Source: a virus
DNA length: 64,000 bases
Virus record (IMG/VR): IMGVR_UViG_3300021471_000007
Coordinates: 11,249 to 75,248 of that record
Direction: 5' to 3' (one strand)
This document shows, in pieces, positions 8,554 to 42,722 of the stretch. Positions within the stretch are counted from its first letter, which is position 1. The number at the start of each line of letters is the position of its first letter. Both the position numbers and the translations under genes were made by a program. The notes under the pieces are model-generated. The model did not search any database. It had not been told where the DNA came from and worked only from the letters and a program-made list of their open reading frames with translations.

Positions 8554-8573
8554 GAAGCGATAGCTTTATATAC
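8554..8573 (+). promoter_or_regulatory. archaeal BRE+TATA promoter (copy of 2497-2516)
   Basis: Exact 20-nt repeat, intergenic. Confidence 0.75.
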
Positions 8574-8605
8574 TAACAAAATAATATGTAATAGAGGTGA
8601 AATAA

Positions 8606-8731
8606 ATGTTTGAATGTGAATGTTTGAAATGTGGATACAGGATGAGTTCTGAACAGCACTGTATGAGTATTAAATGTCCAAAGTGCGGCGGAGAAATGAG
8701 AAGAGTAGATAGACCAGGGATTGGCAGATAA
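8606..8731 (+). CDS. Zn-ribbon microprotein (CECLKCG...HC..IKCPKCGGEMRR..RPG)
   Basis: SD GAGGTGA; two CxxC pairs. Confidence 0.7.
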   Translation: MFECECLKCGYRMSSEQHCMSIKCPKCGGEMRRVDRPGIGR

Positions 8732-8788
8732 AACAATAATTAAGCTGGGCTATTAATACCTTTTTAATTTTATATATGAGGTGATAAG

Positions 8789-8932
8789 ACGTTTTACATT
8801 AAAACTGAAAAAAGGGTTGGATTTTTCACACTTTCAAAAACGTGGAAAGTAGAAACAGATGACAAAACAGAAGCTATTTTGTTAATAAAGGAGAAAGACG
8901 ATGGAAGAATCACAGAGGTAAACAGAGAGTGA
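8789..8932 (+). CDS. hypothetical microprotein, probable ACG start
   Basis: Perfect SD GAGGTGA 4 nt before ACG; 47-codon frame; in-frame TGA just upstream; no early ATG/GTG/TTG. Confidence 0.45.
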   Translation, partial: TFYIKTEKRVGFFTLSKTWKVETDDKTEAILLIKEKDDGRITEVNRE

Positions 8933-8936
8933 TATC

Positions 8937-9371
8937 ATGAAACCAAAACCATTAGATTTAGAAGATTTAGCAAAAATAGAACATGAGCAGTGGATAGAAT
9001 GGAGCAAAGATATAGCAAAAAACGAACCTATATCAAAAGAACGAATTGAAAGGTGGAAGCAGTTTTGGATACCTTATGAAAAACTTCCAGAAAAAGTAAA
9101 AGAAGATGACAGGAAATATGCACGAAGAGTTATGGAACGCATCAAAAAAGTGTGTGAATTTTGGTTGAAATATGCTGATAGTCCAGAAAGACTACTAAAA
9201 GAAAGAGAGGATTTGATAAACAATTCAGAAGCAAGAAAAATAATATCTACTGCAATAAAAAGTAGAATAGGATTAAAAATAGATAAAAGTTTTGTGGTTA
9301 AATCAGTAAGAAATTACAACACTTGGCTATTAAAATTGGCATTTATGAACAATGGAGGTGAAACTTTTTGA
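8937..9371 (+). CDS. RyR-domain-like protein
   Basis: LAKIEHEQW...IPYEKLPEKVKEDDR pattern. Confidence 0.55.
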   Translation: MKPKPLDLEDLAKIEHEQWIEWSKDIAKNEPISKERIERWKQFWIPYEKLPEKVKEDDRKYARRVMERIKKVCEFWLKYADSPERLLKEREDLINNSEARKIISTAIKSRIGLKIDKSFVVKSVRNYNTWLLKLAFMNNGGETF

Positions 9372-9535
9372 CCAATTTTAAAGAAATAATAATAGATTTC
9401 AATGATAAAATAGCTAAGGATTTTGAGGTAAGATATAAAGGAAAGAAAATACTGGCACGTCGAGTATGTGTTTTAGTAGATTTGGATAAAATAGAATTTG
9501 TGAAAGATGAGGATCGGGACCTACAAGAGGCATGA
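9368..9535 (+). CDS. hypothetical protein (TTG start)
   Basis: SD GGAGGTGA; 55 codons. Confidence 0.5.
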   Translation: MTNFKEIIIDFNDKIAKDFEVRYKGKKILARRVCVLVDLDKIEFVKDEDRDLQEA

Positions 9536-9554
9536 ATTAAATACAGGTGATAAT

Positions 9555-9731
9555 ATGAGAAAAATATTTTGTGATATATGTGGAAAAGAAATAGAAAAAC
9601 CAGACATTACAATTAATTTAGATTTGATAAATTGGGAAGAAGATACAGAAGAAATTATTTCACAATTCGATGTGTGCGAAAACTGTACGAGAGAAGCTAT
9701 TGAAAAACTAAAGAAGTTTAACTTGAAGTGA
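9555..9731 (+). CDS. Zn-finger microprotein
   Basis: CDICG...CENC; SD AGGTGA. Confidence 0.65.
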   Translation: MRKIFCDICGKEIEKPDITINLDLINWEEDTEEIISQFDVCENCTREAIEKLKKFNLK

Positions 9732-9759
9732 TTAATGCAATTTGTTTTAAAAAATCATA

Positions 9760-9827
9760 CTCCGCTATGAAGAGGAGCTGCCTGTCCCTCGGTGTAAAGG
9801 GGAACTGGAGCGGAGCCCCAACAGGCA
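9760..9827. ncRNA. candidate pseudoknotted small RNA
   Basis: Crossing 7-bp helices CTCCGCT/AGCGGAG and TGCCTGT/ACAGGCA plus hairpin CCCT/AGGG; intergenic GC island. Confidence 0.4.
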
Positions 9828-9849
9828 CAAATTAAAATGAGTCGATTAA

Positions 9850-10026
9850 ATGAATAAAAAAGAAGTAAAAGAGTTTATAGAAAACAAATTAAAAGTAAAA
9901 GATGAGGTTTGGTTTAGTGAATTGGTGGATAAGTTTTGTAAATCAAAAGTGTTTGAATTTTTTAATGATATGGGAAAACTAAAACAAATTGTAAATCAGC
10001 TTCAAAAAGAAAAGGTGATTATATGA
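9850..10026 (+). CDS. hypothetical small protein, possibly wHTH-like
   Basis: Translated from sequence; coupled to next ORF. Confidence 0.45.
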   Translation: MNKKEVKEFIENKLKVKDEVWFSELVDKFCKSKVFEFFNDMGKLKQIVNQLQKEKVII

Positions 10027-17680: not shown

Positions 17681-19471
17681 TTATAAACTCACGTGCACAT
17701 CTTTTTTGTCTCCAAAAAACTTGATCTTTGCGACTCCTTTTTTACCTGGTTTATATCCTTTCTTTTCTGCATATGTGCCTTCGTAATTTAAAAAGTGTCC
17801 AGTATTAATATAATATCTTTTGTGTTTTACAACCATTTTGTTTTTATAATCTATCTTTCTTAGTTCATCAGTCTGTAATGATAAATCATGAGTATGCCCC
17901 GAACAATTTCCTGTAATCGATACTTTTCCGTTTCTTCTTATTATTACTGTTCCATTAAATGTAGTTACATCCCACATTTTTTTGTCTTCCATCCTATGTT
18001 CTATTAAATTCTTTGACAATGCAAGTGTAACATCTTGTCTATTGCAAATTCCCAATGTATAATTAACTGTATTAGCAAAACCACTGATTCTTTGAAGTTT
18101 TCTTGTTCTATAACCAAATATGGTGCATGCTGCTTGTAATTTGTCTATTAATTTTTCGTTTGCCGAATAATATTCATAAACTCCATCATAGTGTTTGTGT
18201 CCATCTCCTGCAATCAAAGTTTCAAGGAATATATCAAATTGTCTTTTACTGAGCTTATTTATCCAATCTGGTATATCTTTTTCTGATATTAGCTCCCTTA
18301 TCTTTTCTCCTTGCTTTGCTTTTATATAAAACACCATGTCAAGTTTTTCTTTTCCTCTTATATAAATTGAAAAATCTAATTTTAATCTTTCTAATAGTGA
18401 TGTAATTTCATTGGCTTTTTCTCCTTTTCTTTGGTATATCATTATTGCCTTATGTGCTCCGTGTTCATTTTTAAAATGTCCTTCGCTTATGATCCACGCA
18501 ACTAATCGAATTTCATCATCAGACAAATCATAATCTTTATTATCCATAATTCCTGTTAGTGGAATTTTTATTTGTCCTTTTAATTTCGCTAATTCCTTTG
18601 CAGGCTTGATTAAATATTCACCTTTATATTTGTATATCATTCTTTGATTTGGGCTTAAACACTGACTAATTGAGGACATCTCTATATTATATGATTCTTT
18701 TTCTTCTGTTTCAATTTTGTTCAATACTACATCTTTTTCGATTTTGTTATTAATCAAATTAAGGTTAAGTATTATATCTCCAATGTTAACCTCGTCTTTT
18801 TTCTTCCAACCATCTGTTGTCAATATTTCTGTTTCTTCATCAAAACAATAGACGTCAGCATCGAATGATTCACCTAATCTTCTTATTGCTCTTAATTTTC
18901 CTTCTGGCGTCGATGCACCACTTGCACCATGTGTTACATACATCGAATAATTATTCTTTCCAACTCTTAATTTTATAAACCCAGCATATCCCATATATGG
19001 TACGCCGAGTTTACTTGCAAGCATCCTGGTTAAATCAAATCCTATTTCTTTGTAAGTCCTCTCTTCATGATTTCCTGTTAACAATGCAAGTATTTGTTTT
19101 CTTATTGGAGAAAGATATTCTACCATATTATCGAATTGATCTTCTGGAGACATGTCTTCATAAGTATTACTCACAGAATTCATAGTAGCATTATTTAAAT
19201 AATCACCCATTCCAATAACATAAGAACCAGATTTTTTAATATAATCCAAAGTGCCTTCGAACAATTTGACATCACAAGATCTTGCTCCGTAATGTATATC
19301 TCCCAGAGGTATTACCTTTATTTCTTTTTCCTTTGGAAAATCAAAACATTGTAATTTGCTTCTTTTTCTTAATCTAATTTCATCTAATTCTTCATTTAAC
19401 TGTCCAATAAATTTCATCAATTCACCCTTCTTCATCTTTTTTACATCTTTCATAACTTCATTTATATTCAT
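17681..19471 (-). CDS. calcineurin-like metallophosphoesterase containing an intein
   Basis: GDIHYG, GD, GNHE, THG, GHTH motifs; track start 19480. Confidence 0.9.
   Translation of the reverse strand: MNINEVMKDVKKMKKGELMKFIGQLNEELDEIRLRKRSKLQCFDFPKEKEIKVIPLGDIHYGARSCDVKLFEGTLDYIKKSGSYVIGMGDYLNNATMNSVSNTYEDMSPEDQFDNMVEYLSPIRKQILALLTGNHEERTYKEIGFDLTRMLASKLGVPYMGYAGFIKLRVGKNNYSMYVTHGASGASTPEGKLRAIRRLGESFDADVYCFDEETEILTTDGWKKKDEVNIGDIILNLNLINNKIEKDVVLNKIETEEKESYNIEMSSISQCLSPNQRMIYKYKGEYLIKPAKELAKLKGQIKIPLTGIMDNKDYDLSDDEIRLVAWIISEGHFKNEHGAHKAIMIYQRKGEKANEITSLLERLKLDFSIYIRGKEKLDMVFYIKAKQGEKIRELISEKDIPDWINKLSKRQFDIFLETLIAGDGHKHYDGVYEYYSANEKLIDKLQAACTIFGYRTRKLQRISGFANTVNYTLGICNRQDVTLALSKNLIEHRMEDKKMWDVTTFNGTVIIRRNGKVSITGNCSGHTHDLSLQTDELRKIDYKNKMVVKHKRYYINTGHFLNYEGTYAEKKGYKPGKKGVAKIKFFGDKKDVHVSL
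17906..18847 (-). mobile_element. intein (314 aa) with LAGLIDADG homing endonuclease
   Basis: Starts CFDEETEILTTDGW, ends IRRNGKVSITGN followed by Cys+1; LVAWIISEG and FLETLIAGDG blocks. Confidence 0.92.
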
Positions 19472-19571
19472 AAGTAGCACACCTTAAAATTTTATATATT
19501 CATCAGCTACTTACATCTATCTTCAAATTCAATAATGACGCCTCACATAACAATCATCGGCATTCAGTCAC

Positions 19572-19722: not shown

Positions 19723-19911
19723 TTACTTGTCTTCCTTTTTCCATACAATTGGTTCTTTTGTTACTAACCTTAGTATGAAGTTTATTACAACTAGTATTGA
19801 TGCTACCAACTCTGGACTTAATTCTATACCAAAGTATTGACTAGATATCATGCCAGCCAATGTAAGTAGATTTACCCAAAAGGTTTTTGATTTCAAAATA
19901 GTTTTTCCCAT
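19723..19911 (-). CDS. putative holin (2 TM)
   Basis: KSKTFWVN..., INFILRLVTKEP; charged C-terminus; own TATA box. Confidence 0.6.
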   Translation of the reverse strand: MGKTILKSKTFWVNLLTLAGMISSQYFGIELSPELVASILVVINFILRLVTKEPIVWKKEDK

Positions 19912-20090
19912 ACAAACACCTCACATTATTATTGTATTAATTATATATATAAATCTAACTCCGCCTAATCCATACGCTTCCATCAAAGATTTCCATGGGT
20001 ATGTATGTGTTCACACATATCGTGTTTACAATTGGGCTGTTATGCAACATTTATAACACCGTTTTAAGCTCTTAAAATGCTTGTTTTTTG

Positions 20091-21563
20091 TTATGAATAC
20101 AATATTGAGAAACCTTCCACTTGTGGATTCGGGTTAAATGAATCTATATGGAAATTAAATTTTATTCTTAATTTTTTGCCAGCATTGCTTGTAGAGTACT
20201 TTGTACCAGTATATACCGTACCAACAGCCGGTTCCCAATTAAGACCGCCATCTACACTAATCTTTACCTCTGTTTGTGCTAAATCCTGACCAGATATTTT
20301 TAGCTCATAGTATTGTATATTATCTGTTGTGTCTGCATCATAAACTTCACTTATCCAAGTACCGTTAGAACTACCAGATTGTAGTTGTAATTTACCATCT
20401 AATATCAATGTATTTGTATGCGTACCGGAATCCGCATCAAATGTTTCGTTTACACTATAATCTAAGTCATTTTCATTTACAACATCTTCAAGAGAAAGCT
20501 CTTTTTCTGTATGTTTTCTAAATAACGAGGGTATGTGTTTTTTTGTTTGTATTGTTGATTTTGTTTGTAACTCCGGAAATTTGTGTTTAAATTTATAAAT
20601 CTTAAATTGCTGATGTATCGATTGTGTTGGGTTAGATATCCAAATAAAATCACCAGGTCTTAATGATGGTAACAATAATGATTTTGCTGTACCTCTTTTT
20701 TGTGGAGTTTTTAATAATTCTAATTCTGCATTTGCACGTTCTTTTGCTTGCTGTAGTGTTGTTATTGATTTGTCCTTCACTATCTTTTCTTTGACATTGA
20801 GTGATGCAGATGAATCCATTGCTGTATATACTATCTCAAGTCCACTGTTGTCTTCACCATATACAATAACTTTGTTTTTGACGTCTTTTGTATCTGTACC
20901 GATACCCTCTATTTTAATAAGATTATCATTCCACACTATGGCTTCGTCTGGATTTGTTTGTGTAAATTCTTCAAAGAAATGGCAATCCTTGTTATCATCT
21001 ACATAGAAATCATATCCAGCTATCTCACACAAATCTTTTATACAATCCCAAAATGGTTTTTGGCTCCAGTTTATAGTCGCCTTTGTTGTATTAGTTGCAA
21101 CATTTGTTGTCGTAAACGATTCTGACAATTTGGAATTCGCGTCTGCTATTATAGTATTTAATATCGAATCACTTGTACCACTGATCTGCGTGTCTTCAAA
21201 TGTTCGTGTAATTGTTATATCCAATAATTTTTCTGAATAATGACTGCCTTTTACAGTAAGAAAATATGCTCGATCAAATTTCTGTTCAACAACATCTATC
21301 AGTCCGAGATACCTTAATGTTTCAGTTCCATCTCTGGTTATGTATAATTTGACTATTTCGCCGCCAGTATATTTATCATTATAAGAACCATCGGTATTTA
21401 TTAGTTCGAATGAAAATTTGCCAACACCGTCTGTTACTGTTTTTTCAAATTCTGCTTTAACAATATCATCTGTTACATCTACTTCGTCTATTAATATTCT
21501 ATATGATATGTTAAGCTTTCTCGGTATCCAAATAAATACTTCTTGAGATCCACGTGTTGACAT
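20091..21563 (-). CDS. baseplate hub / Tal-like tail protein
   Basis: Position; CIKDLCEIAGYDFYVD, NKVIVYG, AKERANAEL, LRPGD hub pattern. Confidence 0.75.
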   Translation of the reverse strand: MSTRGSQEVFIWIPRKLNISYRILIDEVDVTDDIVKAEFEKTVTDGVGKFSFELINTDGSYNDKYTGGEIVKLYITRDGTETLRYLGLIDVVEQKFDRAYFLTVKGSHYSEKLLDITITRTFEDTQISGTSDSILNTIIADANSKLSESFTTTNVATNTTKATINWSQKPFWDCIKDLCEIAGYDFYVDDNKDCHFFEEFTQTNPDEAIVWNDNLIKIEGIGTDTKDVKNKVIVYGEDNSGLEIVYTAMDSSASLNVKEKIVKDKSITTLQQAKERANAELELLKTPQKRGTAKSLLLPSLRPGDFIWISNPTQSIHQQFKIYKFKHKFPELQTKSTIQTKKHIPSLFRKHTEKELSLEDVVNENDLDYSVNETFDADSGTHTNTLILDGKLQLQSGSSNGTWISEVYDADTTDNIQYYELKISGQDLAQTEVKISVDGGLNWEPAVGTVYTGTKYSTSNAGKKLRIKFNFHIDSFNPNPQVEGFSILYS

Positions 21564-21567
21564 CTAA

Positions 21568-24500
21568 TCAACTCCAACAATTTATGCAATCTGCACAACA
21601 CAAATCATAAGTTACATTAGCCGTAACCAAACTATGCAGTTCTGTTGCATTGCAATTATATAAATCAACCCAAAACCACAAACCATACCAGGTAGTTACC
21701 GGTAGAGTTTCAATATTATTTAATATTGGATATTTTGTTGTATTTAATATAACGGCATCATCTTTTGAGCTTGTTGTGCTTACACTCATATTAATGCAAG
21801 ATGGCAGATTGGAATTTAAATATATGCTCATATTTGCGGTTTTGTCATAGGACATTGTTGTTATATTCCAAAACGGTATTGTATCACTCTGACCATACGG
21901 TGTTATATTAGTGTCATTTAAAAAAGATGGAAAGAACTCCATGTATGGATATAATGTATTGAGATTAACATCTGAATAAACATTCATAATAGAATGTGTG
22001 TCAGAACTTGGCGCATATTCACTATCACCATAAAAATTTGCTGTTACTGTTATATTATCAGAACCTTTATAATATATGGCAAGATCACTCATCTCAACTG
22101 TGCCATTAGAATCTGAAGATATAATAAACGGCACATTAACCGTTTCATCATTTGAATTATTCAGATAATATGATATTGCTGTTGTATTTAATGTAATTGG
22201 ATTATATTGTTGTGTATAATTTATTTCTATATTATCTATTGTAAGCGTTCCACCATCTGACTTTAAATTAATTGGTATTAGACAATAGCCAAATGAATCT
22301 GGTGTGCAAGTACTCAAATAATCGGATAACTCAGAACCGAAATCATCGGTTGTATTTGTTATATTGAAATCACCATTTTCTATCCATTCAACATCACCAT
22401 CACCACTGACATCAATGTATGATGCATGCGGATACATTTTAACATTCAGCCATCCTTCATAATAATTGATTTGATCCATATCACCAAGATCACCATATAT
22501 CTTTATTCTTATCATATCATCTTGATAATAATCTGTCATGTTGGAACCAGCAACTGTTACATTAGAATAATAAGTAGGAATGCTTGGCAATGAATTATCA
22601 AACAGATCCCAAGTATCATCTGTGAAATTATATATATATGCTCCGCGTGTACCGCCCACAAAAACAATAATTCTTCCATACCATTTTATGTATTCTATGT
22701 TTGTTGCATCTGCACCAATGGTGTAATTTTGTATAATATAACCAGCATGATTGCTTCCAAGCATAGCCGATGTTGAATAATCAGAATCACATGCATCGGT
22801 GTAAAACGACCAACCGTTTGTAATAGCAGTACATCCCTCTAGAGCAGACACGGACTGTTTTCCTGTTACATTCACAGTTGCATTATTTACTATTGCTGTT
22901 TTTGGCAATTCAAAATAACCCGTTATTGTTTTTGGTGAATCATATACAAAGTCTTTTGTTTTAGTACCATCATTAAATGTACTTAGTGTTACATTGCCTT
23001 CTTTTAATTCACCAACAATATTTGTATCCAAAACATTATCTATATATAACTTTACATTCTTTGGCAAACCATTAGTATTATAACCTGTAAGCGATATGTT
23101 TCCACTGGTTACATAATCATATTTGTTAAATGTAACATTAACTGTTTTATTAATCGATGAATTTGTATACACTATTTTTATATAAGGCATAAATGATCCA
23201 TATTCTTTTGAATAGAATTGTATTAAGTCAGATCCGCTTTGTGCACCACTAAAAAATAATGATGCATTATGCTCATTGTTTCGTTCGAGTTCGAGCCAAT
23301 CCGTTATATCAAAAGACATCCAATATGGTGTTGCATTATCACCATAGTATGTGCTGTTTTTAGTTATAAATTGACTATAAGACGGTCTTTCATTCCATGT
23401 GATATCGTTTTCAGACCAAGTTTGATCGTTTACCTGGTAGACACTTATGTTTATCTGCTCACCACTTTCATATGTAGTATCATATACATAAACAAACAAT
23501 CTTGCATTTAGTATTTGTTTATCAAAAACATCAGATAAATTAAACTTCATGTAACCATATACTAAATCTGATACATACGTTCCAACACTTATATGATCAT
23601 CTGTTCCATAATTTGAATCCGGATAACTTTGCACAACATACGCATCGTCTAATATCGAATCTGAATTCAGTTGTATATCATAACCATAAAATTCATCAAA
23701 TGTTACATTCTTTGCTGTAGATCCATCACTAAATTCCTGTTTTGCTGCGAATGTAGTAAAATTATATTCGAAGTTTAAAATACCGAATCTAACTTTAGTT
23801 TCATACCAATTTGTTAGATAACTGCCACTTTCATCTACTAACATATCATCTATTTGTAGTATACCATCAGATAAAAAGTCTGTTGCATTATCAGATGTTA
23901 TGTTTACTTGCCTATATATCATTCCTGATGTTCCACCCTCATCTGATGAATTATATACAACTTGCCAATCGTTGGAAGTATAATTATAAAGCCTTAATAC
24001 CGAATGTGCACCAAGATCATCTGCTTGTTCTGCTTTGAAATATATTTGTGCACTCCTTACATTCGATGGTATTGTATAATTCTCATATACATGTGAATTG
24101 CCTATATAGCTACCAGTTGTAGCAGCAGCAGAAACCCAATCTTCATCAACAGCATGCGAACAATCATATGTGCCTGTACTAAATGTGCCTTCACAAGCAT
24201 AACTGTCTTCCGTATCATCCCAATCAAGCCACGTAATGTTAACACTTGATGAGTTTATATAGTCAACACCAAAGCCCGGTGCATATATTGATAAATACAT
24301 TTCTTTGTCTATATCAGAACTGAAATTGGCTTTTAGTGTTACAACTGAACCTTGATCATAATAACGATCTGCATTTAAACCATTAAGATATAAATTTATA
24401 TGTGATGATTTTAAAACATCTAGATATAACGTATCTGAACTCGATGTATAGTTATCATTGCCTTCATAAAAACCGGTTATATTAAATTTTCCAAACTCAC

Positions 24501-26478
24501 TTAACAATGTATAATTATATAATGGTGTTGTGCCGGTTTGTATCGTCCACCCAGTCATATTTGTATCCAAACCAACCGTTTCTCCGCTAGCATTAACATA
24601 TACAGTAAAATTCGCCACTGTACCATTGCCTAAAGTACTATCAGAATGTGTTCCATTTATTAATAATATTGTTTGCGTCTGCGCCGTGCTTATCGTAGTA
24701 ATCCAACTATCTGTAGAACTCCATAAATCTTCAGAGTCATTTGCATAAAACTTCCAAGTATACGTTCCAGCACCCAATATTATATCGTAATAGGATGTAT
24801 TTTCATCTCTTGTAGTTGTATAATTATGCGGTGTTCCTGTATAATTTATTTCTATATAACTAAAATTATAACCATTGGAATCTTTGTCATCACTCCACGT
24901 TACATTAAATTGTGAATGTATTAAAGGAGAATATGATGATGGACTATATGAGTTATTTGCTGACCATTGTGGTGATATTTTTGATACAGTTTCTGAACCA
25001 ATTGAATATGTGGGTTCTGGATCTGCTAATAAATATAATGTAAAATTATCGCCTGAAACATTACACGCAGTCGATGGACTGCTTAATGAAAACAAAAAAC
25101 CAACCGTATCACTATTAGGAAAAGTTGCTGCATGATTCTGATTTTCAACTACACTAAAAACCGGATCATCCCAAGTAAAATTTTCACAGGTATTATTCAT
25201 TTTTATGATTAAATGATGCCAATCTTGATCTTGTGCCCAAGAGTTGTCTCCAGTTTTCCAACCATTCAAATTCCATTTCCATCCGTATGAAGCCCATGAT
25301 TGGTGTTCGATTCTCCAAGCTATAGTAGAATCATTGGAACCAAACATCGCTGAATGTGAGTCACCGGAATGTGTTCCGTCTTGCATATAATCAAGTTCCA
25401 TGACAATATACACTCCACTAGAAAAATTAAAATGTTTTTTTGAAACTAAGTCCGTTCCTTTATTCTCAGGAAAAGTGACAATTCCATCACCCACATCGGG
25501 TAAATCGCCTCCAGTAAAACGTGGAGACCATATTGATGTATTAATTGCATTACCATCAAATGCATCATAGATGTTATATCTAATATCATTCCAACTTGAA
25601 TTAGCAAAATTAGCATTAGTGTTGCCATAATAAACATTATAGTCCGATGTTGATGATGCATTTACATCAATCTTAAAAGTCAATTCCACATGTGTTGAAT
25701 TGCAATTTCTTAAACCAAAATCAATTTCATTGTCTGTGGTATTTATAACTCTTATGTCTGAACAATCGGCCTTTGCGTTTCCACTATGATTAAACCAAAC
25801 AACAATGGGATAATTTATCAAATCATTCCCAGAATTTTCTGTTATTGTTATTGTTTTTCTATAATTCCAATTTGAATTCCACCACGTAGGATCAAACAAT
25901 CTAACATTAAACACTTCATAATCAGATTTAATATCATACTGTGCTTTTACAATTCCTGTTTTATAAACCCATGCCCAACGATAGTCTGGGTTTAAGCTAA
26001 CTTTCATATTCTTGCCAAATTCTAATAGTGTTTCTCCGTGTAACTTATAAGTAGGGCCATCATATGTCAAGTCTCTTACTTCATATCTATAAAATTTACC
26101 AGAAGCATTAAATATTTCAACTTGGTGTGATATTGGAAACAATTCCTTGTTTTTTATATCACCTCTAAAATAATAAGTATCTTTGATTACAGGCCCTCTT
26201 ATATATTTAGTATATCGAGTGATATAGACATCATTACCACTAATATTAGTATCAATATGAATAGACGACAAATCACGATTCATTTGTTTAGAACCGTCAA
26301 ACAGCTTATTGTATTCACGACCAGACACTGTCCAAATCCAACTATATTTTTCACTAGGCACATAAAACGTTGTTTTATCTCTGTCAACTCTTATACGCAC
26401 CTGGTTACTAAAAGTAACATAAACACTAGTAAGTGTTATTAATACTATTAAAAAACCAACAATCTGTTTTTTGTTCAT
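21568..26478 (-). CDS. giant adhesin-like protein (signal/TM, DUF2341-lectin, Ig-like, DNRLRE/CBM96 domains)
   Basis: N-terminal hydrophobic helix; WWNSNWNYRKTITI...DCSDIRV...VYYGN; DAYV....PDSNYG...TWNERP...FYSKE. Confidence 0.75.
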   Translation of the reverse strand: MNKKQIVGFLIVLITLTSVYVTFSNQVRIRVDRDKTTFYVPSEKYSWIWTVSGREYNKLFDGSKQMNRDLSSIHIDTNISGNDVYITRYTKYIRGPVIKDTYYFRGDIKNKELFPISHQVEIFNASGKFYRYEVRDLTYDGPTYKLHGETLLEFGKNMKVSLNPDYRWAWVYKTGIVKAQYDIKSDYEVFNVRLFDPTWWNSNWNYRKTITITENSGNDLINYPIVVWFNHSGNAKADCSDIRVINTTDNEIDFGLRNCNSTHVELTFKIDVNASSTSDYNVYYGNTNANFANSSWNDIRYNIYDAFDGNAINTSIWSPRFTGGDLPDVGDGIVTFPENKGTDLVSKKHFNFSSGVYIVMELDYMQDGTHSGDSHSAMFGSNDSTIAWRIEHQSWASYGWKWNLNGWKTGDNSWAQDQDWHHLIIKMNNTCENFTWDDPVFSVVENQNHAATFPNSDTVGFLFSLSSPSTACNVSGDNFTLYLLADPEPTYSIGSETVSKISPQWSANNSYSPSSYSPLIHSQFNVTWSDDKDSNGYNFSYIEINYTGTPHNYTTTRDENTSYYDIILGAGTYTWKFYANDSEDLWSSTDSWITTISTAQTQTILLINGTHSDSTLGNGTVANFTVYVNASGETVGLDTNMTGWTIQTGTTPLYNYTLLSEFGKFNITGFYEGNDNYTSSSDTLYLDVLKSSHINLYLNGLNADRYYDQGSVVTLKANFSSDIDKEMYLSIYAPGFGVDYINSSSVNITWLDWDDTEDSYACEGTFSTGTYDCSHAVDEDWVSAAATTGSYIGNSHVYENYTIPSNVRSAQIYFKAEQADDLGAHSVLRLYNYTSNDWQVVYNSSDEGGTSGMIYRQVNITSDNATDFLSDGILQIDDMLVDESGSYLTNWYETKVRFGILNFEYNFTTFAAKQEFSDGSTAKNVTFDEFYGYDIQLNSDSILDDAYVVQSYPDSNYGTDDHISVGTYVSDLVYGYMKFNLSDVFDKQILNARLFVYVYDTTYESGEQINISVYQVNDQTWSENDITWNERPSYSQFITKNSTYYGDNATPYWMSFDITDWLELERNNEHNASLFFSGAQSGSDLIQFYSKEYGSFMPYIKIVYTNSSINKTVNVTFNKYDYVTSGNISLTGYNTNGLPKNVKLYIDNVLDTNIVGELKEGNVTLSTFNDGTKTKDFVYDSPKTITGYFELPKTAIVNNATVNVTGKQSVSALEGCTAITNGWSFYTDACDSDYSTSAMLGSNHAGYIIQNYTIGADATNIEYIKWYGRIIVFVGGTRGAYIYNFTDDTWDLFDNSLPSIPTYYSNVTVAGSNMTDYYQDDMIRIKIYGDLGDMDQINYYEGWLNVKMYPHASYIDVSGDGDVEWIENGDFNITNTTDDFGSELSDYLSTCTPDSFGYCLIPINLKSDGGTLTIDNIEINYTQQYNPITLNTTAISYYLNNSNDETVNVPFIISSDSNGTVEMSDLAIYYKGSDNITVTANFYGDSEYAPSSDTHSIMNVYSDVNLNTLYPYMEFFPSFLNDTNITPYGQSDTIPFWNITTMSYDKTANMSIYLNSNLPSCINMSVSTTSSKDDAVILNTTKYPILNNIETLPVTTWYGLWFWVDLYNCNATELHSLVTANVTYDLCCADCINCWS

Positions 26479-26954
26479 TACTTATCCACCCCTATAACAA
26501 ACACACCAGTAAATCCAATCTTCCTATAAGGTGTAACTGACTCATCTTCTTTTATCGCACCGACTTTTTCTGAGAATTTCATTTTATTTATATTAACTGT
26601 ATATTTTTGCTGTTGGTTATCAGCAGATTTACCCCATACAACAGTGCACGTTCCACCAGAGTTTGCAATATTAAGTAAGTTGTTTTTCTTTTCTAATGCC
26701 GATATACTAGCTTCATCTGTAAGAACACCATTAACAGTTATTGCCTGTTTAACCTGAAGCAAATCGATTAACAATCTTTGAGGATCAGTTGATCCACGTT
26801 GATCCTGTGGAACAGGTAAAGGTATATCTATTAAATCTTTAGCATAATCAAAATCAACACTAAACGTACTTATCTTAACAGTAGTACCGCCTGTTATTGT
26901 ATCGCCAGATACCGTTCCAGTTGTTACAAAAAAATCTTCAGTAACATCAACCAT
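26478..26954 (-). CDS. distal tail (Dit-like) protein
   Basis: Directly after TMP; size and beta pattern. Confidence 0.55.
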   Translation of the reverse strand: MVDVTEDFFVTTGTVSGDTITGGTTVKISTFSVDFDYAKDLIDIPLPVPQDQRGSTDPQRLLIDLLQVKQAITVNGVLTDEASISALEKKNNLLNIANSGGTCTVVWGKSADNQQQKYTVNINKMKFSEKVGAIKEDESVTPYRKIGFTGVFVIGVDK

Positions 26955-26958
26955 ATAA

Positions 26959-29145
26959 TCACCTTCTTATCATTTCCTCAATATCCTCAATCCATTCTTT
27001 GCTTAATTTGTCTTTTACGACATCAATATCAAGTTCACTTGCTGCGTTAATAGTAATATCAACATTAGGATTAAAATTTATTATTTGTTGTGAACCGAGT
27101 GAAGTTTTCTTTAATGGAATCACAGCTTCTGGACCTGCTTCTCCAATTCGCGTAACAAGTGGCTTTGTTACAATTCCACCCATTTGCATTTCAGGTATTA
27201 TACCAGAAAATCCTTGTCCATTTATTGTATACTCACCATATGTTTTGCCACCCTCTGTGCCCATAACTTTTGTGACTTTAACACCAGAATATCTAGCATG
27301 TCCGGTAGAATGTTTTTCTATGATTTCGTGTATAGTAGATTTATATGGTGGAATTGCATCTATTTTGTCTATTAATTCCGATGCTTTTATCGAACTTTTA
27401 TCAAAATTGGTTGCAGTCATATCTAATCCAACATTTGTCTCTTTGAGTGATGTGTTTGTAAATGAATCCATTGTTTTTGTTAAATTAGATGTCATGTTTT
27501 TTGATTTATCTATTGCCCCAGTAAAATTGTCAGTGACTCCAGTAAGTTCGTCTGTTGCGTTTGTAGTATCGTTAAGACTTGGCATAAAGTTTCCGGTTAA
27601 GTTGCCAGTTAAATCCGATATGGTTCCACCAACAGATTTGAGAGCAGGATCTAAAAACCCAGTACCTTTTATTAAGCCCTTGTCAATCTTATCCCCGGTT
27701 TCTATTGTATCATTGCCCAATTGTTTCAAAGTTGGTGCAACGTTGTCCATGGTCTTCCTCCAAGCTGCCACCGATTTTCCAGTAGACACAAGCTGATCAT
27801 GTAAACTCTCCGATAATGCTGTTTTGCTTTTGTTTAATTCTCTTTCTAATTCCTTTGTACTTGATTTATATTTAGATAAATCTAGTTTTGGAAATGGTGG
27901 TAGTTTTTTGCCAAGGAATCCTGCAACAGTTCTTACTGAATTCCAAAGAGCCCTTAATGGTCCGGTAAGTATATTGTTAACAAAAAATTCTATACCAGAC
28001 AAAATAGCATTACCTGCTTTTGTAGATGCTATAACCATTGATAACCATGAAACTTTCCATATAAGACCAGCTTTCGTTATAGCAAATGCTATCATATCTT
28101 TTAGTGCTATGATACCAGCACCAATTACAGTTAAAACCGGTTTTATGTATTTATCAAATACATCTGCAAACCACAATACAAAATGTCCAGTGTGTTGTCT
28201 TATATGCCCCCAATTGTTTTTCCATGCAGCATTTAATATTGCTATAGCAGCTATAATTGCAACAATAGCTAATATTATTGGCATCATACTAACAGAACCT
28301 GCAGCACCAGCAGATGACATAGATGCTTTGAAACCGTTTAAAGTTTTTCCAATTTTAGAAAATCCTTTTTTGAATGCTCCAACTAATCCACCCATTTTTT
28401 TCAACTTTGCAAATGCTGCAAATGTGATAGATAATCCATCTATAGCTAGGCCAAGCTGTCCTACTGCAAACAATGCCATACCCATAACAAGTCCTAGAAG
28501 TACGAATATACCTATGGCCATCTTTGTACCATGGCTTAATTTATTAACTATTCCCAATAACCAAAGCATCGCTCTTAATATTAAGAGTGCAACTGGAAGA
28601 AACATAATTGTTAAAATTGTACTCCATATCTTAAATACACCGGTGACTTTCATTGCCGGTTGCAATAGCCCACCAAATGTTTTCTGCATTTGCATACCAA
28701 GAAACATCACAGACAAAAGCTCCATCCTAAATGGTTTCATTCCACGTGCCATTTTTCTCTGCGCTTGTGCATTAGACAATGTTCTACCAGTACTAATGTC
28801 TATAAGTTTATTGTTTTTTCCCATTGCTATGCCTACATTACGCATCATTCGTGGTAAATATCCTAACCCTTCTGTAAATCTACCATTTTTATCTGTTCCA
28901 AAATCAATAGACTTAGCAAAATTCTTTAAAGTACCGATTTGTTTGTTTGTCCCTTTATATAATGGTCCTAAGTATTTCTGCATATCCTCGGTCGACATAC
29001 CAAACGTTTTCATCGATTTGCTGATTTTTTCAGTTCTTGTGTTTAGTGTCGATGCTGCTTTCTCTATACCTTTCATATCGTATTCTATCTTTTTGGCATC
29101 GTTTTGTTCTTCTCTTATATTAAAGTTAATATTAACATCTGGCAT
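26959..29145 (-). CDS. tape measure protein
   Basis: Helical, hydrophobic segments; AWKNNWGHIRQ; GGIVTKP..IGEAGPEAVIPL. Confidence 0.9.
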   Translation of the reverse strand: MPDVNINFNIREEQNDAKKIEYDMKGIEKAASTLNTRTEKISKSMKTFGMSTEDMQKYLGPLYKGTNKQIGTLKNFAKSIDFGTDKNGRFTEGLGYLPRMMRNVGIAMGKNNKLIDISTGRTLSNAQAQRKMARGMKPFRMELLSVMFLGMQMQKTFGGLLQPAMKVTGVFKIWSTILTIMFLPVALLILRAMLWLLGIVNKLSHGTKMAIGIFVLLGLVMGMALFAVGQLGLAIDGLSITFAAFAKLKKMGGLVGAFKKGFSKIGKTLNGFKASMSSAGAAGSVSMMPIILAIVAIIAAIAILNAAWKNNWGHIRQHTGHFVLWFADVFDKYIKPVLTVIGAGIIALKDMIAFAITKAGLIWKVSWLSMVIASTKAGNAILSGIEFFVNNILTGPLRALWNSVRTVAGFLGKKLPPFPKLDLSKYKSSTKELERELNKSKTALSESLHDQLVSTGKSVAAWRKTMDNVAPTLKQLGNDTIETGDKIDKGLIKGTGFLDPALKSVGGTISDLTGNLTGNFMPSLNDTTNATDELTGVTDNFTGAIDKSKNMTSNLTKTMDSFTNTSLKETNVGLDMTATNFDKSSIKASELIDKIDAIPPYKSTIHEIIEKHSTGHARYSGVKVTKVMGTEGGKTYGEYTINGQGFSGIIPEMQMGGIVTKPLVTRIGEAGPEAVIPLKKTSLGSQQIINFNPNVDITINAASELDIDVVKDKLSKEWIEDIEEMIRR

Positions 29146-29148
29146 CTA

Positions 29149-29708
29149 TTATCCCCTAAACGTACTTTTGCGCATACTTCTATTTTGTTGTTTATTTACT
29201 TCCTTATAATATTTATCAATTTGTTTTATCTGCTCAATAAATCTAACTGCTGGATAATGCGGATGTATCTTGCATCCAAGCTCTTTCTCTATCAAAAAAC
29301 AGTATTCTGCATATGTTTCATCAATGCTCTTTGGCAAAACACTGTTTACGAGACCGGATTTAATTAATGCTGCACTTAACCCCTTTTTTTCATTTCGTTT
29401 ACTTTCTTAGTATTGTTTATAGTATTCACAGTTTTATCCTGCAATCCAAGAGCATCCGAAAACTTTATCATAAATTCCACCAAATTATGCACTAAAAACG
29501 CTTCTATTGCCTTTGGATCCTCATCTGGATATGATCTCTTTAATATATCTTTGAACACACTAATTATTGTCTCCAGAGACTTTTTCTTATCCTGTTCGTC
29601 TTGAGCAGCTGTTAATGTAACAAGATCTTGAAGTTCTATTATTAAACTTAGATCTTCACCATTAACATTCATTTTACACTCTGATATATACTTTGCAAAT
29701 TTTCCCAT
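29149..29708 (-). CDS. tail assembly chaperone pair (gpG 29376-29708; gpGT by -1 frameshift into 29149-29337)
   Basis: ATG AAA AAA AGG GGT TAA; the -1 frame is open into the downstream ORF; directly precedes TMP. Confidence 0.7.
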
Positions 29709-37817: not shown

Positions 37818-38669
37818 TCACCCGTATATATAATTTATAATTATTTTTCCATAATCAAAATATTCGATATATGCATGTATTGGTGGGAATCCCGACCAAT
37901 TATAATCTATCAATTTTAAGACATCTGTCACACTTCTAATATAAGACACAGTTCTATTATATATATCTGCAATATCCAGAACATCTGCAATACTTCTTCC
38001 AAGTGTTGCTGTTCTGTTATATATATCAGATAATGTTAAAACAGATGAAATAATTTTAAGTGTTTCTCTATATATTGCATCTGATAATGATATCACTGCA
38101 ATTATAATTTCACTATAACCAATGTTAAGTATATCAGATAAAACTGCAGCATCAGTATATAATCTATAATAAGTTCCGGCTCTTTGAAAAACATCATTTA
38201 ATAGCATCTGCGCAACCAATGTTCTTGCAAAAAATAAAACCTTACTGTATGAATCAACTATAGAAGCATTATCCGATAAAATCTTCATTATAAGAGCTTC
38301 TTTTGAGTCAACCAAACTCAGAGATTCTTTCTTTTCATATAAACTTATTAATTTATTAAACGTATCATTTTCAATTAGTATATCACTGTAAGATCTAAAT
38401 CCTGTATAGGATCTACTATATGTATCAGACCCAACCAACATCGCTGTTAATAGCTTTTGTACTCCAAGTATATACGTATCATCAATTGTTATAGTAGACA
38501 TGTTTTGTTTATAAATACATTTTATAAGACTGTCGCTAAATATAACAGTCTCACTCAATATTTTTGTAAGTGCAGCACCGATAGCTGAAATATTAAGCAA
38601 TCCCAACTCTGTCCTATTCGCACCAGTACTTATTAAACCAAGCGTAGTTCTTATATCAGTATCGGTCAT
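37818..38669 (-). CDS. repetitive fibre protein (~19-aa SD...L.D units)
   Basis: Periodic units as in 45127-47625. Confidence 0.6.
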   Translation of the reverse strand: MTDTDIRTTLGLISTGANRTELGLLNISAIGAALTKILSETVIFSDSLIKCIYKQNMSTITIDDTYILGVQKLLTAMLVGSDTYSRSYTGFRSYSDILIENDTFNKLISLYEKKESLSLVDSKEALIMKILSDNASIVDSYSKVLFFARTLVAQMLLNDVFQRAGTYYRLYTDAAVLSDILNIGYSEIIIAVISLSDAIYRETLKIISSVLTLSDIYNRTATLGRSIADVLDIADIYNRTVSYIRSVTDVLKLIDYNWSGFPPIHAYIEYFDYGKIIINYIYG

Positions 38670-40030
38670 TGCTTAATCACCTTGAACAATGTTAGGTTAT
38701 TATTTGCATCATAAGATGCTGTCATTTTATATTTTGCAATCAAACCGGTGGTTTTATCATGTGTTGTTGCATTTGCAGCACTATCATAACAATATAAATA
38801 TGATTCTGTTTTGTTGCCGTTGGCATCTCTAGATATATCATCCTCTACATGATTCTCTAATACCATACCGAGTATTTTCCACAACGATTCTCCAAATGTC
38901 CCAGATGTACTATGATCAGAAACGTTTTCATCCCAAACCTGATCGGATATAGTCAACGGATTCAATAAATAACTTATATCTACATTGGCCGAAGAGTTGT
39001 TTATAATTTTTCCAACACCTCTAATTGTTATATCACCGTTTGTAACTGTGCTATCAAGAACTACCTTGCCACTGTTTAGGTCTATGCGTATGCTGTCTGT
39101 TCCTGTTTTGTTTATTATTTTTATTCCTCCATTGTAATTTCGGAGTGATAGGCCTTGGCCGCTTCCACCCATGTCTATTACCGGTGGATCTGTCCCAATG
39201 ATACCGTTCCAACAATCCAAAAAATGAGCGTCGCTTCCTCCTCCTAACGTTATAGTTCCTTCCAACATGCATGATTCTATCACCCCGTAAATATAATTTA
39301 AATCTCCAATTCTACATTGATATAGTTTACAATTACCATCTAAAGTTCCTGTTACATATGCATTTTCAAATTCACAATTAGTAACATCGGCTGCCGAACT
39401 AATGGTGATATTAGTTTTAGTCATAGATTCTCCCATAAACAGCATACCAGAATAATCACCACCGGTATCTATTGTCAAATCACCAATTACATAAATAGTA
39501 TCAAAACCTCTTTCGTCTGCTATTAACATAGCATCTGTTAAATTATTGACTGGCTCTTGCAAAGTCCCAACTGGAAAATCTGTTCCACTATAAGGACTTG
39601 TTACATCAATTGTAACCCCACCATTAAATGAACTATATTGAATAGATGATAATTCCTGCAATGTTGCAGAAGACGAACTCGTAAGCGTAACAGTAACATA
39701 TGCAGATGGTTCAATTGGCGATTCATAGCTAGAAGTCGCGGTATTGTACATAACCAAATTACCACCACTAACATTACAAATAATATAACTTGGACCAGAT
39801 CGGTCTTCAAATTTTAATTTCCAATCTATAAGTTTGAGTGTTAAACCAACATAAACTCCTCCACCAAGTTCTTCTTTTCCTGTGCAATCTGCTACTTTGT
39901 AAACTTCCATGTTTTCTGGTTCGTCTTCCCAGTCTCTAATATTGTTATAAAGATCTTGTATGGTAACCTCAGTGTCTGGAGCTTTGACTATAATAAGCTT
40001 ATTAATTTTATCAAATTCATATACTACCAC
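38666..40030 (-). CDS. virion fibre/spike protein with beta-helix-like core
   Basis: N-domain similar to that of 40082-42718; PVGTLQEPVNNLTDA. Confidence 0.55.
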   Translation of the reverse strand: MVVYEFDKINKLIIVKAPDTEVTIQDLYNNIRDWEDEPENMEVYKVADCTGKEELGGGVYVGLTLKLIDWKLKFEDRSGPSYIICNVSGGNLVMYNTATSSYESPIEPSAYVTVTLTSSSSATLQELSSIQYSSFNGGVTIDVTSPYSGTDFPVGTLQEPVNNLTDAMLIADERGFDTIYVIGDLTIDTGGDYSGMLFMGESMTKTNITISSAADVTNCEFENAYVTGTLDGNCKLYQCRIGDLNYIYGVIESCMLEGTITLGGGSDAHFLDCWNGIIGTDPPVIDMGGSGQGLSLRNYNGGIKIINKTGTDSIRIDLNSGKVVLDSTVTNGDITIRGVGKIINNSSANVDISYLLNPLTISDQVWDENVSDHSTSGTFGESLWKILGMVLENHVEDDISRDANGNKTESYLYCYDSAANATTHDKTTGLIAKYKMTASYDANNNLTLFKVIKQ

Positions 40031-40049
40031 TAGACCACCCTAAAAAATC

Positions 40050-40078: not shown

Positions 40079-40081
40079 ATT

Positions 40082-42718: not shown

Positions 42719-42722
42719 CTAA

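Follow-up and report, generated by a model that had tools for sequence, protein, structure and literature searches.

The locus under study raises the question of what a giant protein with the sequence signature of an exported glycoprotein is doing among the tail-tip genes of a virus. We have analysed this protein within the window, that is the whole 64,000-nucleotide stretch of viral DNA, together with its relatives in other viral contigs.

The tail-tip gene block and its conservation

The target reading frame is intact (table 11) and belongs to the following block:

26959 to 29145, minus strand: tape measure protein (TMP), 728 aa, upstream of the target in the same operon
26478 to 26954, minus strand: 158-aa protein with a tail-tube or Dit-like fold, whose stop overlaps the target start
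21568 to 26478, minus strand: the whole target ORF (P0001), 1636 aa, the predicted exported, sequon-saturated giant of the block
20091 to 21563, minus strand: tail hub, 490 aa (YqbQ-like / phrog_1887), final gene of the tail operon
19836 to 19861: terminator-like hairpin past the hub gene

The TMP was identified from weak PHROG tape-measure matches, internal hydrophobic segments and homology to the TMPs of related loci, the 158-aa protein from its structural similarity to a Dit_like cluster (ESM Atlas, TM 0.68), and the hub from its match to tail protein phrog_1887 (E 2e-12), the YqbQ likeness being weak. The sequence-only reading, which had placed the protein between Dit and a baseplate hub, is thus borne out. 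The target is translationally coupled within this series: its ATG overlaps the stop of the preceding gene (TAATG) and is preceded by a GGTGG ribosome-binding motif, and the hub gene starts 4 nt past its stop. Other fibre-like genes are found in the same genome at 37818-47625, so that the virion may not need the target protein.

The host of the virus is archaeal. Archaeal genes of the virus include a PriX domain and an archaeal-type RNase HII, the nearest named homologues of the latter being from Altiarchaeota (40% identity). The earlier framing of the host as a DPANN symbiont is unproven.

A profile of the N-terminal module of the target retrieves 702 sequence clusters, in every case with the module at the N-terminus; the family occurs in viral contigs, whereas a pattern scan of 185,579 species genomes did not find it. 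The gene order of tape measure, Dit-like protein, predicted exported and sequon-rich giant, and hub recurs in 13 out of 13 hub-anchored loci, each with a homologue of target residues about 1350-1634 just before the hub. The N-terminal anchors of these giants are of at least three unrelated types; in the pre-hub giants the C-terminal domain is constant and the N-terminal anchor interchangeable. A sequon-rich giant with the same C-terminal domain at a fixed slot in all loci is unlike a sporadic accessory gene, and the presence of an apparently exported protein there in all relatives examined is hard to reconcile with intracellular tail building.

Export and N-glycosylation signature

The target starts with MNKK followed by an uncharged hydrophobic run of about 20 residues, whose mean Kyte-Doolittle value (2.21 over 19 residues) is the highest N-terminal value among the ORFs of the window. 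Export, sequon and cysteine statistics were obtained on a sample of 151 family members: the hydrophobic segment is present in 146, the remaining 5 being N-terminally truncated, and its uncharged part has a median length of 20 aa. G8, L10 and Y20 are conserved. The basic and hydrophobic, export-type N-terminus proposed from the sequence alone corresponds to a conserved predicted signal or anchor. Locus L015 has a split gene, whose distal part (2293 aa) has its own canonical signal peptide.

The number of N-x-S/T sequons in the target (70) exceeds largely that in composition-preserving shuffles (30.0 ± 4.8, z 8.4), also when shuffling is confined to 50-aa blocks (29.9 ± 4.7, the highest of 1000 shuffles reaching 46). 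The excess is specific in direction and spacing, as inferred from control motifs which remain at baseline (26 for the reverse [ST]-x-N, 26 for N[ST] and 31 for N-x-x-[ST]). Further, NxT prevails over NxS (45:25) although serine is at least as common as threonine, and NP[ST] is absent. The comparison proposed by the sequence-only reading, with MCP, TMP and hub, finds the target enriched and those three proteins not (0 sequons in the MCP, 9 against 5.5 expected in the TMP, 5 against 4.8 in the hub). Elsewhere in the window, a second giant (66 against 31, z 7.6) and a 283-aa protein (8 against 2.3) stand out, the rest having z values near 0. Calling the protein sequon-saturated was thus justified: a conserved signal goes along with a density 2.3-fold above that predicted from Asn, Ser and Thr content, the reverse of what that reading had named as counting against its proposal.

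The same pattern is evidenced by the family, whose members sum 5432 sequons, where shuffled sequences give 2264 and the reverse motif occurs 2249 times, with an NxT:NxS ratio of 3243:2189 (T and S being about equally common) and 59 NP[ST] against 152 expected. A D/E excess at position -2 is absent, and the type is thus not the bacterial PglB one. Sequon columns are conserved at N124 in the N-domain (79%), N1524 (84%), N1538 (94%) and N1563 (71%), and the conserved Asn nearly always has S/T at +2 (94%/94% at N1538). As an internal calibration, 143 ORFs from 13 related viral contigs were split according to the presence of an N-terminal hydrophobic segment: the 23 ORFs that have it contain 724 sequons against 309 expected, and the 120 that do not, 354 against 323. 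Sequon excess is thus associated with N-terminal export signals (Fisher p 1e-6), the capsid, tube, tape-measure and hub proteins of these contigs being at baseline.

The cysteine pairs noted earlier were also confirmed: the target has 16 cysteines, with close pairs at 239/259, 431/472, 762/773, 1216/1230, 1391/1399 and 1561/1609 and a terminal CCxxCxxC. The cysteine count is even in 111 of the 151 members (p 6e-9), a bias which points to an oxidising compartment.

These results bear on the possibility that the protein is an ordinary cytoplasmic tail fibre, its hydrophobic N-terminus being buried in the tip or used for membrane penetration on entry, and its sequons having come along with domains acquired from host surface proteins, or serving as sites of a cytoplasmic N-glycosyltransferase. 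The location in the tail module, the RBP-like modular architecture and the middle modules, clearly common to cellular surface proteins, would fit. However, about 20 conserved hydrophobic residues behind basic ones would be caught by SRP/Sec, and the virus-specific C-terminal domain of the target, with its conserved sequon columns, is itself enriched (15 against 6.9, z 3.6). The tracking of sequons with export signals, the signal peptide of the split variant and the even-cysteine bias also argue against it, and no GT41/HMW1C-like enzyme was detected among the 36 window proteins scanned with Pfam. We thus regard a cytoplasmic fibre as improbable, and both export and N-glycosylation of the target as very likely on these sequence grounds.

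Domain architecture and possible role

The target comprises the following segments, listed from the N-terminus:

26416 to 26478, minus strand: residues 1-21, basic n-region and hydrophobic segment, a putative Sec-type signal peptide or type II signal anchor
25879 to 26415, minus strand: residues 22-200, conserved N-domain, a β-supersandwich (galactose-mutarotase-like), always N-terminal in the family
25525 to 25767, minus strand: residues 238-318, DUF2341 (Pfam PF10102, E 3e-6, 28 bits against a cut-off of 23.4)
24244 to 24996, minus strand: residues about 495-745, repeat modules common to cellular surface proteins and family members
23173 to 23649, minus strand: residues 944-1102, CBM96/DNRLRE carbohydrate-binding module (Pfam E 9e-27, NCBIfam E 1e-27, PDB 8wab/7vbo)
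21571 to 22431, minus strand: residues 1350-1636, conserved C-terminal domain with a Cys-rich tail at its end, the constant element of the pre-hub slot

The N-domain model (AF2 pLDDT 81) resembles accessory domains of GH38 and polysaccharide lyases as well as the periplasmic P1 domain of YidC (VIA Z 11-13); its fold is not Dit-like. The repeat modules recur at 39-72% identity in other family members and in cellular surface proteins that carry signal peptides, the latter being also sequon-enriched (z 5-12). From the modules proposed by the sequence-only reading, DNRLRE and DUF2341 hold, a lectin or LamG module was not found by Pfam, and the Ig proposal is supported only through the Ig-like fold of the last C-terminal subdomain and the shared repeats. 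No catalytic domain was detected in the target, and no fold or sequence link of its N- or C-domain to known tail-attachment domains was found.

A second giant and glycosyltransferase-type genes occur elsewhere in the window:

47626 to 52332, minus strand: second giant, 1568 aa, predicted exported, with a different N-terminal anchor type, CBM96 and a NosD β-helix
52307 to 53047, minus strand: candidate GT-A-like glycosyltransferase overlapping the start of the second giant (weak, sub-threshold matches)
7081 to 8373, plus strand: GT2 and methyltransferase fusion

The anchor type of the second giant fills the pre-hub slot in other viruses. In locus L003 the family gene is immediately preceded by the same GT2 and methyltransferase fusion; there is a linkage between these giants and virus-encoded GT2 genes.

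A series of steps, namely Sec export, AglB glycosylation, disulfide formation and possible GT2 tailoring, is as a whole well supported and probable. The basic and hydrophobic N-terminus would take the nascent chain to Sec, with the N-terminus remaining inside and the bulk outside; the host oligosaccharyltransferase AglB would N-glycosylate the roughly 1600-aa body (β-supersandwich, DUF2341, repeat modules, CBM96 and Ig-like end) at many N-x-S/T sites; disulfides would stabilise it, and the glycan may be modified by GT2-type enzymes that the virus encodes.

The sequence-only reading had offered two alternatives, a virus-encoded cell-surface adhesin or a tail spike maturing extracellularly. Their shared basis, export and N-glycosylation, holds at the family level, and the choice between them is not decided by sequence; the pre-hub placement in all 13 loci leans towards the second. 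Our preferred reading, which we hold tentatively, is that the gene may encode a carbohydrate-binding tail adhesin which is exported first and attached later: it would mature beyond the membrane and join the tail tip during egress. The C-terminal domain, being invariably present in the slot beside the hub gene across the related viruses, might dock the matured glycoprotein to the Dit-like/hub tip once virions are on the outer side of the membrane, a step as tentative as the reading itself. The N-terminal anchor module might serve export and tethering only, which would explain its interchangeability between viruses. Against docking, head-tail virions are assembled in the cytoplasm, and we know of no tailed virus that adds a tail protein outside the membrane; archaeal tailed viruses are stated to leave the cell by lysis (PMC10384203). 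The target domains are of the beads-on-a-string kind, as in monomeric cell-surface adhesins and unlike trimeric fibres, which also speaks against a tail adhesin. Docking could take place upon lysis, or within a compartment bounded by an S-layer or an outer membrane.

A distinct scenario, somewhat unlikely in our estimate, is that the exported protein stays on or near its producer and never joins the virion, masking or binding surface glycans so that progeny is shielded from re-adsorption to debris, excluding superinfection, or altering the adhesion of the cell, for example to a partner cell or biofilm. Its export and glycosylation signature would be identical, its topology separate from cytoplasmic tail assembly, and its domain set is like that of cellular surface adhesins with signal peptides; in the relatives L003, L008, L010 and L012 an N-domain protein is encoded away from the tail-tip block. 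Exported proteins encoded in tail regions have bacterial precedents in lambda Lom/Bor, T5 Llp and HK97 gp15. An adhesion role has already been proposed for ConA/LamG proteins and glycosyltransferases of CPR/DPANN viruses (PMC11310336). However, the gene is obligatory, fixed in position and coupled to the Dit-like and hub genes, unlike sporadic morons; the constant C-terminal domain beside the hub would be left unexplained, and such a protein (825-4645 aa) would be a very costly late product for a cell near lysis.

The separation of anchor module and adhesin body into two polypeptides in L014 and L015 would also suit a two-part envelope device, in which the anchor (TM and N-domain) and the body would work together outside the cell, not in host recognition but in egress or in breaching the envelope; at lysis they might, for example, take hold of the S-layer or outer sheath from the outside. 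The likeness of the N-domain to accessory domains of glycoside hydrolases and polysaccharide lyases goes in this direction, as does the NosD/pectate-lyase-like β-helix of the second giant; however, the target itself lacks a detectable catalytic domain and the proposal is purely inferential and without precedent, and we consider it very improbable.

Comparison with known systems

The giants of this slot have all the sequence hallmarks of export and N-glycosylation outside the cell, the target within the tail-tip block of an uncultured archaeal head-tail virus. The gene position in a TMP, Dit and hub block, the carbohydrate-binding modules strung on the protein and the cassettes varying widely between related viruses are as in the CBM-decorated tail-tip proteins ('evolved' Dit, Tal and RBPs) of Lactobacillus and Lactococcus phages. 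However, these Gram-positive siphovirus proteins lack both an export signal and N-glycosylation, and their assembly is cytoplasmic; also, the conserved attachment candidate of the target is C-terminal instead of N-terminal, and its N-domain is not Dit-like.

Ff phage pIII is a Sec-exported, disulfide-bonded receptor-binding protein which remains in the membrane until it is incorporated, outside the cytoplasm, into a non-enveloped virion; it differs in being bacterial, not glycosylated, unrelated in sequence and part of an extruded virion that is not head-tail. PblA/PblB of Streptococcus mitis phage SM1, lambda Lom/Bor, T5 Llp and HK97 gp15 have their genes within a tail region or adjacent to it, and their site of action is the surface or membrane of the host cell, where they contribute to adhesion or to superinfection exclusion. 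PblA/B have no signal peptides and reach the surface through lysis, whereas the target has a predicted N-terminal export signal; Lom/Bor, Llp and HK97 gp15 are small, sporadic and usually under their own promoters, whereas the target is giant, obligatory and translationally coupled.

The spikes HRPV-1 VP4 and HFPV-1 ORF4 of archaeal pleolipoviruses are adsorption proteins with a signal peptide, and the host machinery provides their N-glycosylation (PMC10384203). Pleolipoviruses have an envelope and gain the spike by budding, via a C-terminal membrane anchor, whereas here the virus is head-tail and without envelope, and the anchor is N-terminal. Metagenomic work on CPR/DPANN viruses (PMC11310336) likewise describes lectin-type proteins and glycosyltransferases encoded by viruses of uncultured archaea, proposed as an aid to cell adhesion, at annotation level and without a link to export signals, sequon statistics or a tail-tip gene block. 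Finally, archaeal surface glycoproteins with DUF2341, CBM96 and Ig-like repeats (such as P0008-P0010, presumed cellular from their long contigs of 101 kb and 487 kb) have repeat modules in common with the target (39-46% identity) and, like it, N-terminal signal peptides, sequon excess (z 10-12) and Cys-rich bodies; unlike it, they are devoid of the N-domain and C-domain of the virus family, and some have C-terminal membrane anchors.

The tail operon and its virus

The window covers 64 kb of a linear IMG/VR record of 75,248 bp, whose completeness is estimated by CheckV at 73%, and codes for a large terminase, a portal, an HK97-type major capsid protein (MCP) and two tail-tube proteins, as well as for a tape measure protein (TMP) and a YqbQ-like/phrog_1887 tail hub. 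The giant protein under study, P0001, is encoded within the following block of the tail operon.

Genes of the tail-tip block, in order of the operon
26959-29145, minus strand: TMP, first gene of the block TMP / 158-aa protein / P0001 / hub
26478-26954, minus strand: 158-aa Dit-like protein, between TMP and P0001
21568-26478, minus strand: P0001, intact ORF of 1636 aa, next-to-last gene of the tail operon
20091-21563, minus strand: tail hub, directly after P0001

The successive spacers of this block amount to 4 nt, a 1-nt overlap (TAATG, with GGTGG ahead) and 4 nt, and a terminator-like hairpin is found 3' of the hub gene. A promoter scan with bacterial models, which do not cover archaeal promoters, yielded only shuffle-level matches. 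In the ESM Atlas the fold of the 158-aa protein proves to be of the tail-tube/Dit-like kind, with TM 0.68 against a Dit_like cluster and 0.63 against P2 GpU, so that the placement of P0001 between Dit and the baseplate hub, as put forward in the sequence-only reading, is a fair description, with the YqbQ-like/phrog_1887 hub gene following it. The C-terminal part of the hub (20091-21563) carries an S-x-D-G-G-x-x-W (Asp-box/BNR-like) motif conserved in three aligned hubs, and to judge from this motif the hub may itself bind carbohydrate. The DNA-repair exonuclease adjoining the hub (17681-19480, minus strand, 599 aa) carries a LAGLIDADG-like insert; a homologue in the related locus L024 (11422-12258, 278 aa) matches its flanks 54-213 and 528-599 but has nothing in between, the pattern that insertion of an intein or homing endonuclease would produce.

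The host is archaeal, and a DPANN host is no more than a possibility. The virus carries a PriX primase domain, a Cas4-like nuclease and an archaeal-type RNase HII (TIGR00729 above cut-off), whose nearest named homologues are from Altiarchaeota (40%) and then from other archaea. A search for tRNA genes found none, and the TerL matches among 50,697 phage records gave no pointer to the host. The virus DNA is present in hydrothermal-vent and marine metagenomes, no RNA run being listed among the sequencing runs in which it occurs. Contig pieces identical to window positions 20000-29200 (TMP, P0001 and hub) occur in two further studies, one marine and one of a hydrothermal vent, which indicates a geographically or temporally recurrent virus.

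Sequons, cysteines and export signals

P0001 contains 70 N-x-S/T sequons, as compared with 30.0 ± 4.8 in composition-preserving shuffles (z 8.4), and shuffling within 50-aa blocks agrees with this result (maximum of 46 sequons in 1000 shuffles). The control motifs remain at low counts, namely 26 for the reverse motif [ST]-x-N, 26 for N[ST] and 31 for N-x-x-[ST]. Thus, shuffles, reverse-motif and spacing controls rule out a compositional artefact, and β-strand patterning cannot explain the excess, since the reverse motif shares the same i/i+2 periodicity and yet is not enriched. The NxT:NxS ratio is 45:25 in a protein with no fewer Ser than Thr, and NP[ST] does not occur. Elsewhere in the window z is near 0 (MCP 0 sequons, hub 5 versus 4.8 expected, TMP 9 versus 5.5), the only exceptions besides P0001 being a second giant, with 66 sequons versus 31 expected, and a 283-aa protein. 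The 16 cysteines of P0001 are arranged as close pairs plus a terminal CCxxCxxC.

P0001 begins with a basic n-region, MNKK, ahead of a hydrophobic stretch without charged residues (Kyte-Doolittle 2.21), and such a segment, with a median of 20 aa, is present in 146 of the 151 sampled members of the family sharing its N-terminal module, the remaining members being truncated. The sequon saturation, the cysteine pairs and the basic and hydrophobic export-type N-terminus, all noted from the sequence alone, are therefore borne out. By eye, cleavage after a conserved S-G/T-S and an uncleaved anchor are both possible. Within the segment, G8, L10 and Y20 are conserved in at least 90% of 13 aligned homologues, a conservation not usual in signal peptides that are cleaved, and one suggesting a retained segment with a specific partner. 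Two other sorting routes were rejected: lipoprotein sorting, as in Llp/Ltp-type superinfection exclusion, since P0001 has no Cys in residues 1-238 and hence no lipobox; and archaeosortase processing (PGF-CTERM and similar), as the sole segment with Kyte-Doolittle above 1.6 is the N-terminal one. The C-terminal end is a soluble Cys-rich tail.

To calibrate the relation between sequon excess and export signals, we turned to the window together with 12 related viral contigs, from which we took 143 non-overlapping ORFs of 150 aa or more. An N-terminal hydrophobic segment is present in 23 of them, which contain 724 sequons versus 309 expected (reverse motif 319), and the other 120 contain 354 versus 323 expected (reverse motif 340), a sequon z above 3 being associated with a signal with an odds ratio of 22 (Fisher p 1.1e-6). 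The cytoplasmically made capsid and tail proteins of this virus group are without sequon excess, and cellular surface proteins with P0001-like middle repeats have canonical signal peptides and sequon z values of 5-12. The calibration indicates that sequon excess marks exported proteins in this virus group. Archaeal N-glycosylation takes place only outside the membrane, and from these sequence features we consider that P0001 is very probably exported via Sec, with its N-terminus inside and most of the chain outside, receives N-glycans at many positions from the oligosaccharyltransferase of the host and forms disulfides.

The other window genes bearing on export and glycosylation are the following.

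Second giant, glycosyltransferase genes and 283-aa protein of the window
47626-52332, minus strand: second giant, 1568 aa, TM at ~22-38, CBM96, NosD beta-helix, 34 Cys
52307-53047, minus strand: weak GT-A-like gene, overlapping the second-giant start by 26 nt
7081-8373, plus strand: GT2/Anp1-like glycosyltransferase fused to a class I methyltransferase, recurring in the virus group
37818-38669, minus strand: 283-aa protein, 8 sequons versus 2.3 expected, z 4-4.8

The second giant does not have the conserved C-domain (residues 1350-1636 of P0001), and hhalign of the N-domain profile (residues 22-200) against its N-terminus found no relation beyond the signal. In the related locus L003, the counterpart of the GT2-methyltransferase fusion (8532-9980) lies directly upstream of the family gene, and the virus-coded GT2-type genes may edit the glycan on the exported giants. 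The hydrophobic N-terminal segment of the 283-aa protein is weak (Kyte-Doolittle 1.3-1.65); this protein may be a further exported or glycosylated part of the fibre cassette.

Domains, family and gene order

The sequence-only reading had assigned lectin, DUF2341 and DNRLRE modules to P0001, an assignment that holds for the latter two. CBM96/DNRLRE is found at residues 944-1102 (PF24517 94 bits, cut-off 26; NF033679 97 bits, cut-off 34), with PDB matches to 8wab and 7vbo, and DUF2341 at 238-318 (PF10102, 28 bits, cut-off 23.4), a match obtained with the 200-aa piece as sole query and unlisted in the whole-protein scan. A LamG/ConA-like lectin had no Pfam match in residues 301-500 and 495-1000 at E up to 1, and PF13385 is present in some homologues. 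The N-domain was modelled (pLDDT 81) as a galactose-mutarotase-like β-supersandwich, matching at Z 11-13 the accessory domains of GH38 mannosidases and polysaccharide lyases, and also the periplasmic P1 domain of YidC, which likewise stands behind an N-terminal membrane helix. An identity of the N-domain with Dit appears unlikely, as the best matches are galactose-mutarotase-like, one BFVD Dit entry reaches only TM 0.33 and it is the 158-aa neighbour that is Dit-like. In the C-domain model (pLDDT 81, pTM 0.53) the terminal part is an Ig-like sandwich; the best match of the model, at Z 7.3, is generic. Fold searches of BFVD with both models returned nothing at E <= 1e-3, and that of the ESM Atlas with the N-domain no usable match.

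Close homologues of P0001 share the N-terminal 200 residues, hydrophobic segment included, and a C-terminal domain of ~290 aa, and differ in the middle. A profile of the N-terminal module retrieved 702 clusters at 50% identity, 564 of them at E <= 1e-30, from 1.84 billion representatives, the module being invariably at the extreme N-terminus of proteins of 228-4645 aa. The sequon signature is common to the family: the 151 sampled members total 5432 sequons versus 2264 in shuffles and 2249 for the reverse motif, and z exceeds 3 in 93 of the 101 sampled proteins of at least 600 aa. The NxT:NxS ratio is 3243:2189, T and S being about equally frequent, NP[ST] amounts to 59 versus 152 expected, and the Cys count is even in 111 of the 151 (p 6e-9). 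A bacterial PglB-type sequon was rejected, as D/E at -2 occurs in 619 sequons versus 647 expected. At conserved columns Asn is nearly always paired with S/T at +2 (sequon/Asn: N124 79%/97%, N1524 84%/87%, N1538 94%/94%, N1563 71%/71%). The virus-specific C-domain is itself enriched, with 15 sequons versus 6.9 expected, indicating that the signature is more than an import with host-derived middle modules. A tblastn search of the 50,697 phage records with the whole of P0001 gave no match, PHROGs holds no family for it, and genome contigs scanned with the N-domain alignment and the middle repeats yielded no relative, a pattern-limited scan and thus weak evidence of cellular absence.

Gene order was analyzed in two sets of related viruses. 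Of the twelve IMG/VR loci found via the N-domain, L004 and L007 have the order TMP / small protein / family member / hub; L002 and L011 show its first three members, TMP / small protein / family member; in L003, L008, L010 and L012 the N-domain protein is elsewhere. Mild sequon excess (z 3.3-3.8), with no N-terminal signal, is observed in the TMPs of L004 (7271-9331), L007 (6014-7570) and L017 (5105-6532). The second set was obtained with the hub, against the ascertainment bias of the N-domain search; a single-sequence hub query found no loci, and an alignment query retrieved 13 that extend upstream of the hub (12 distinct viruses and, in addition, two contigs already met). In all 13, TMP is succeeded by a small Dit-like protein (130-217 aa), then by one or more large ORFs (825-2293 aa) and finally by the hub, and a homologue of P0001 residues ~1350-1634 always stands right before the hub. 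An N-terminal hydrophobic segment is present in these large ORFs, whose sequon z values are 4.7-14.6. The N-terminal anchor module is interchangeable, being of the P0001 type in six viruses, of the second-giant type in four (L014, L015, L018 and L019) and of other types in three. In L012 (7971-9848 and 15177-18326), where the N-domain protein is far from the hub, a different-anchor protein with the C-domain fills the slot. The exported giant is thus a fixed member of this lineage's tail-tip block and no sporadic moron.

In L015 (2170-9985) the gene is split into a 322-aa anchor protein and a body of 2293 aa that has a classical signal peptide of its own, a natural experiment which argues that the body must be exported. 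L014 (5229-9968) also has anchor module and adhesin body as separate ORFs, the body there being without a signal peptide, for which an assembly error or a frameshift could account. The accepted view is that tailed viruses assemble the entire tail within the cytoplasm. P0001 has the layout of a receptor-binding protein, with its place in the tail-tip block, constant C-domain and variable middle. That it is a fibre made in the cytoplasm appears quite improbable, as this would leave the signal, the signal-linked sequon excess and the split variant unexplained. A giant that is exported and acts at the cell surface only, in receptor masking or adhesion, would account for the topology more simply, and PMC11310336 has put forward a surface role of this kind, from annotation, for the lectin genes found in CPR/DPANN viruses. 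We regard this reading, the main rival of the one preferred below, as somewhat less probable than the latter, since the fixed slot, the coupling and the constant C-domain find no explanation in it.

Export, tail assembly and known systems

The reading that we prefer, with due reserve, is that an archaeal head-tail virus lineage sends its tail-tip adhesin through host Sec and N-glycosylation, to be attached only outside the membrane to virions already built in the cytoplasm. The interchangeable N-module would only export and tether the adhesin, and the constant C-domain would dock the matured protein to the Dit-like/hub tip when virions reach the outer face of the membrane. This docking at the tail tip is the inferred step, which we propose tentatively. 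If true, the virion would wear host-type glycans. To our knowledge, no tailed virus uses such a two-compartment assembly.

Given an obligatory tail-tip giant whose family as a whole shows the signature of export and glycosylation, only two conclusions are left: some portion of the tail is completed outside the cell, or a huge surface glycoprotein is tied to the tail genes for another reason in all these viruses. This bears on how archaeal tailed viruses recognise glycosylated envelopes and on virus-driven remodelling of archaeal cell surfaces, as well as on the annotation of ~700 uncharacterised protein clusters, and the sequon-versus-signal statistic provides a cheap flag for exported viral proteins in archaeal viromes. 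The literature searched holds no description of an obligatory, Sec-signal-bearing and sequon-saturated giant in the TMP/Dit/hub block of head-tail viruses, extending over ~700 clusters; already known are lectin-decorated tail tips, glycosylated spikes in those archaeal viruses that have an envelope, and exported proteins whose genes lie near tail genes.
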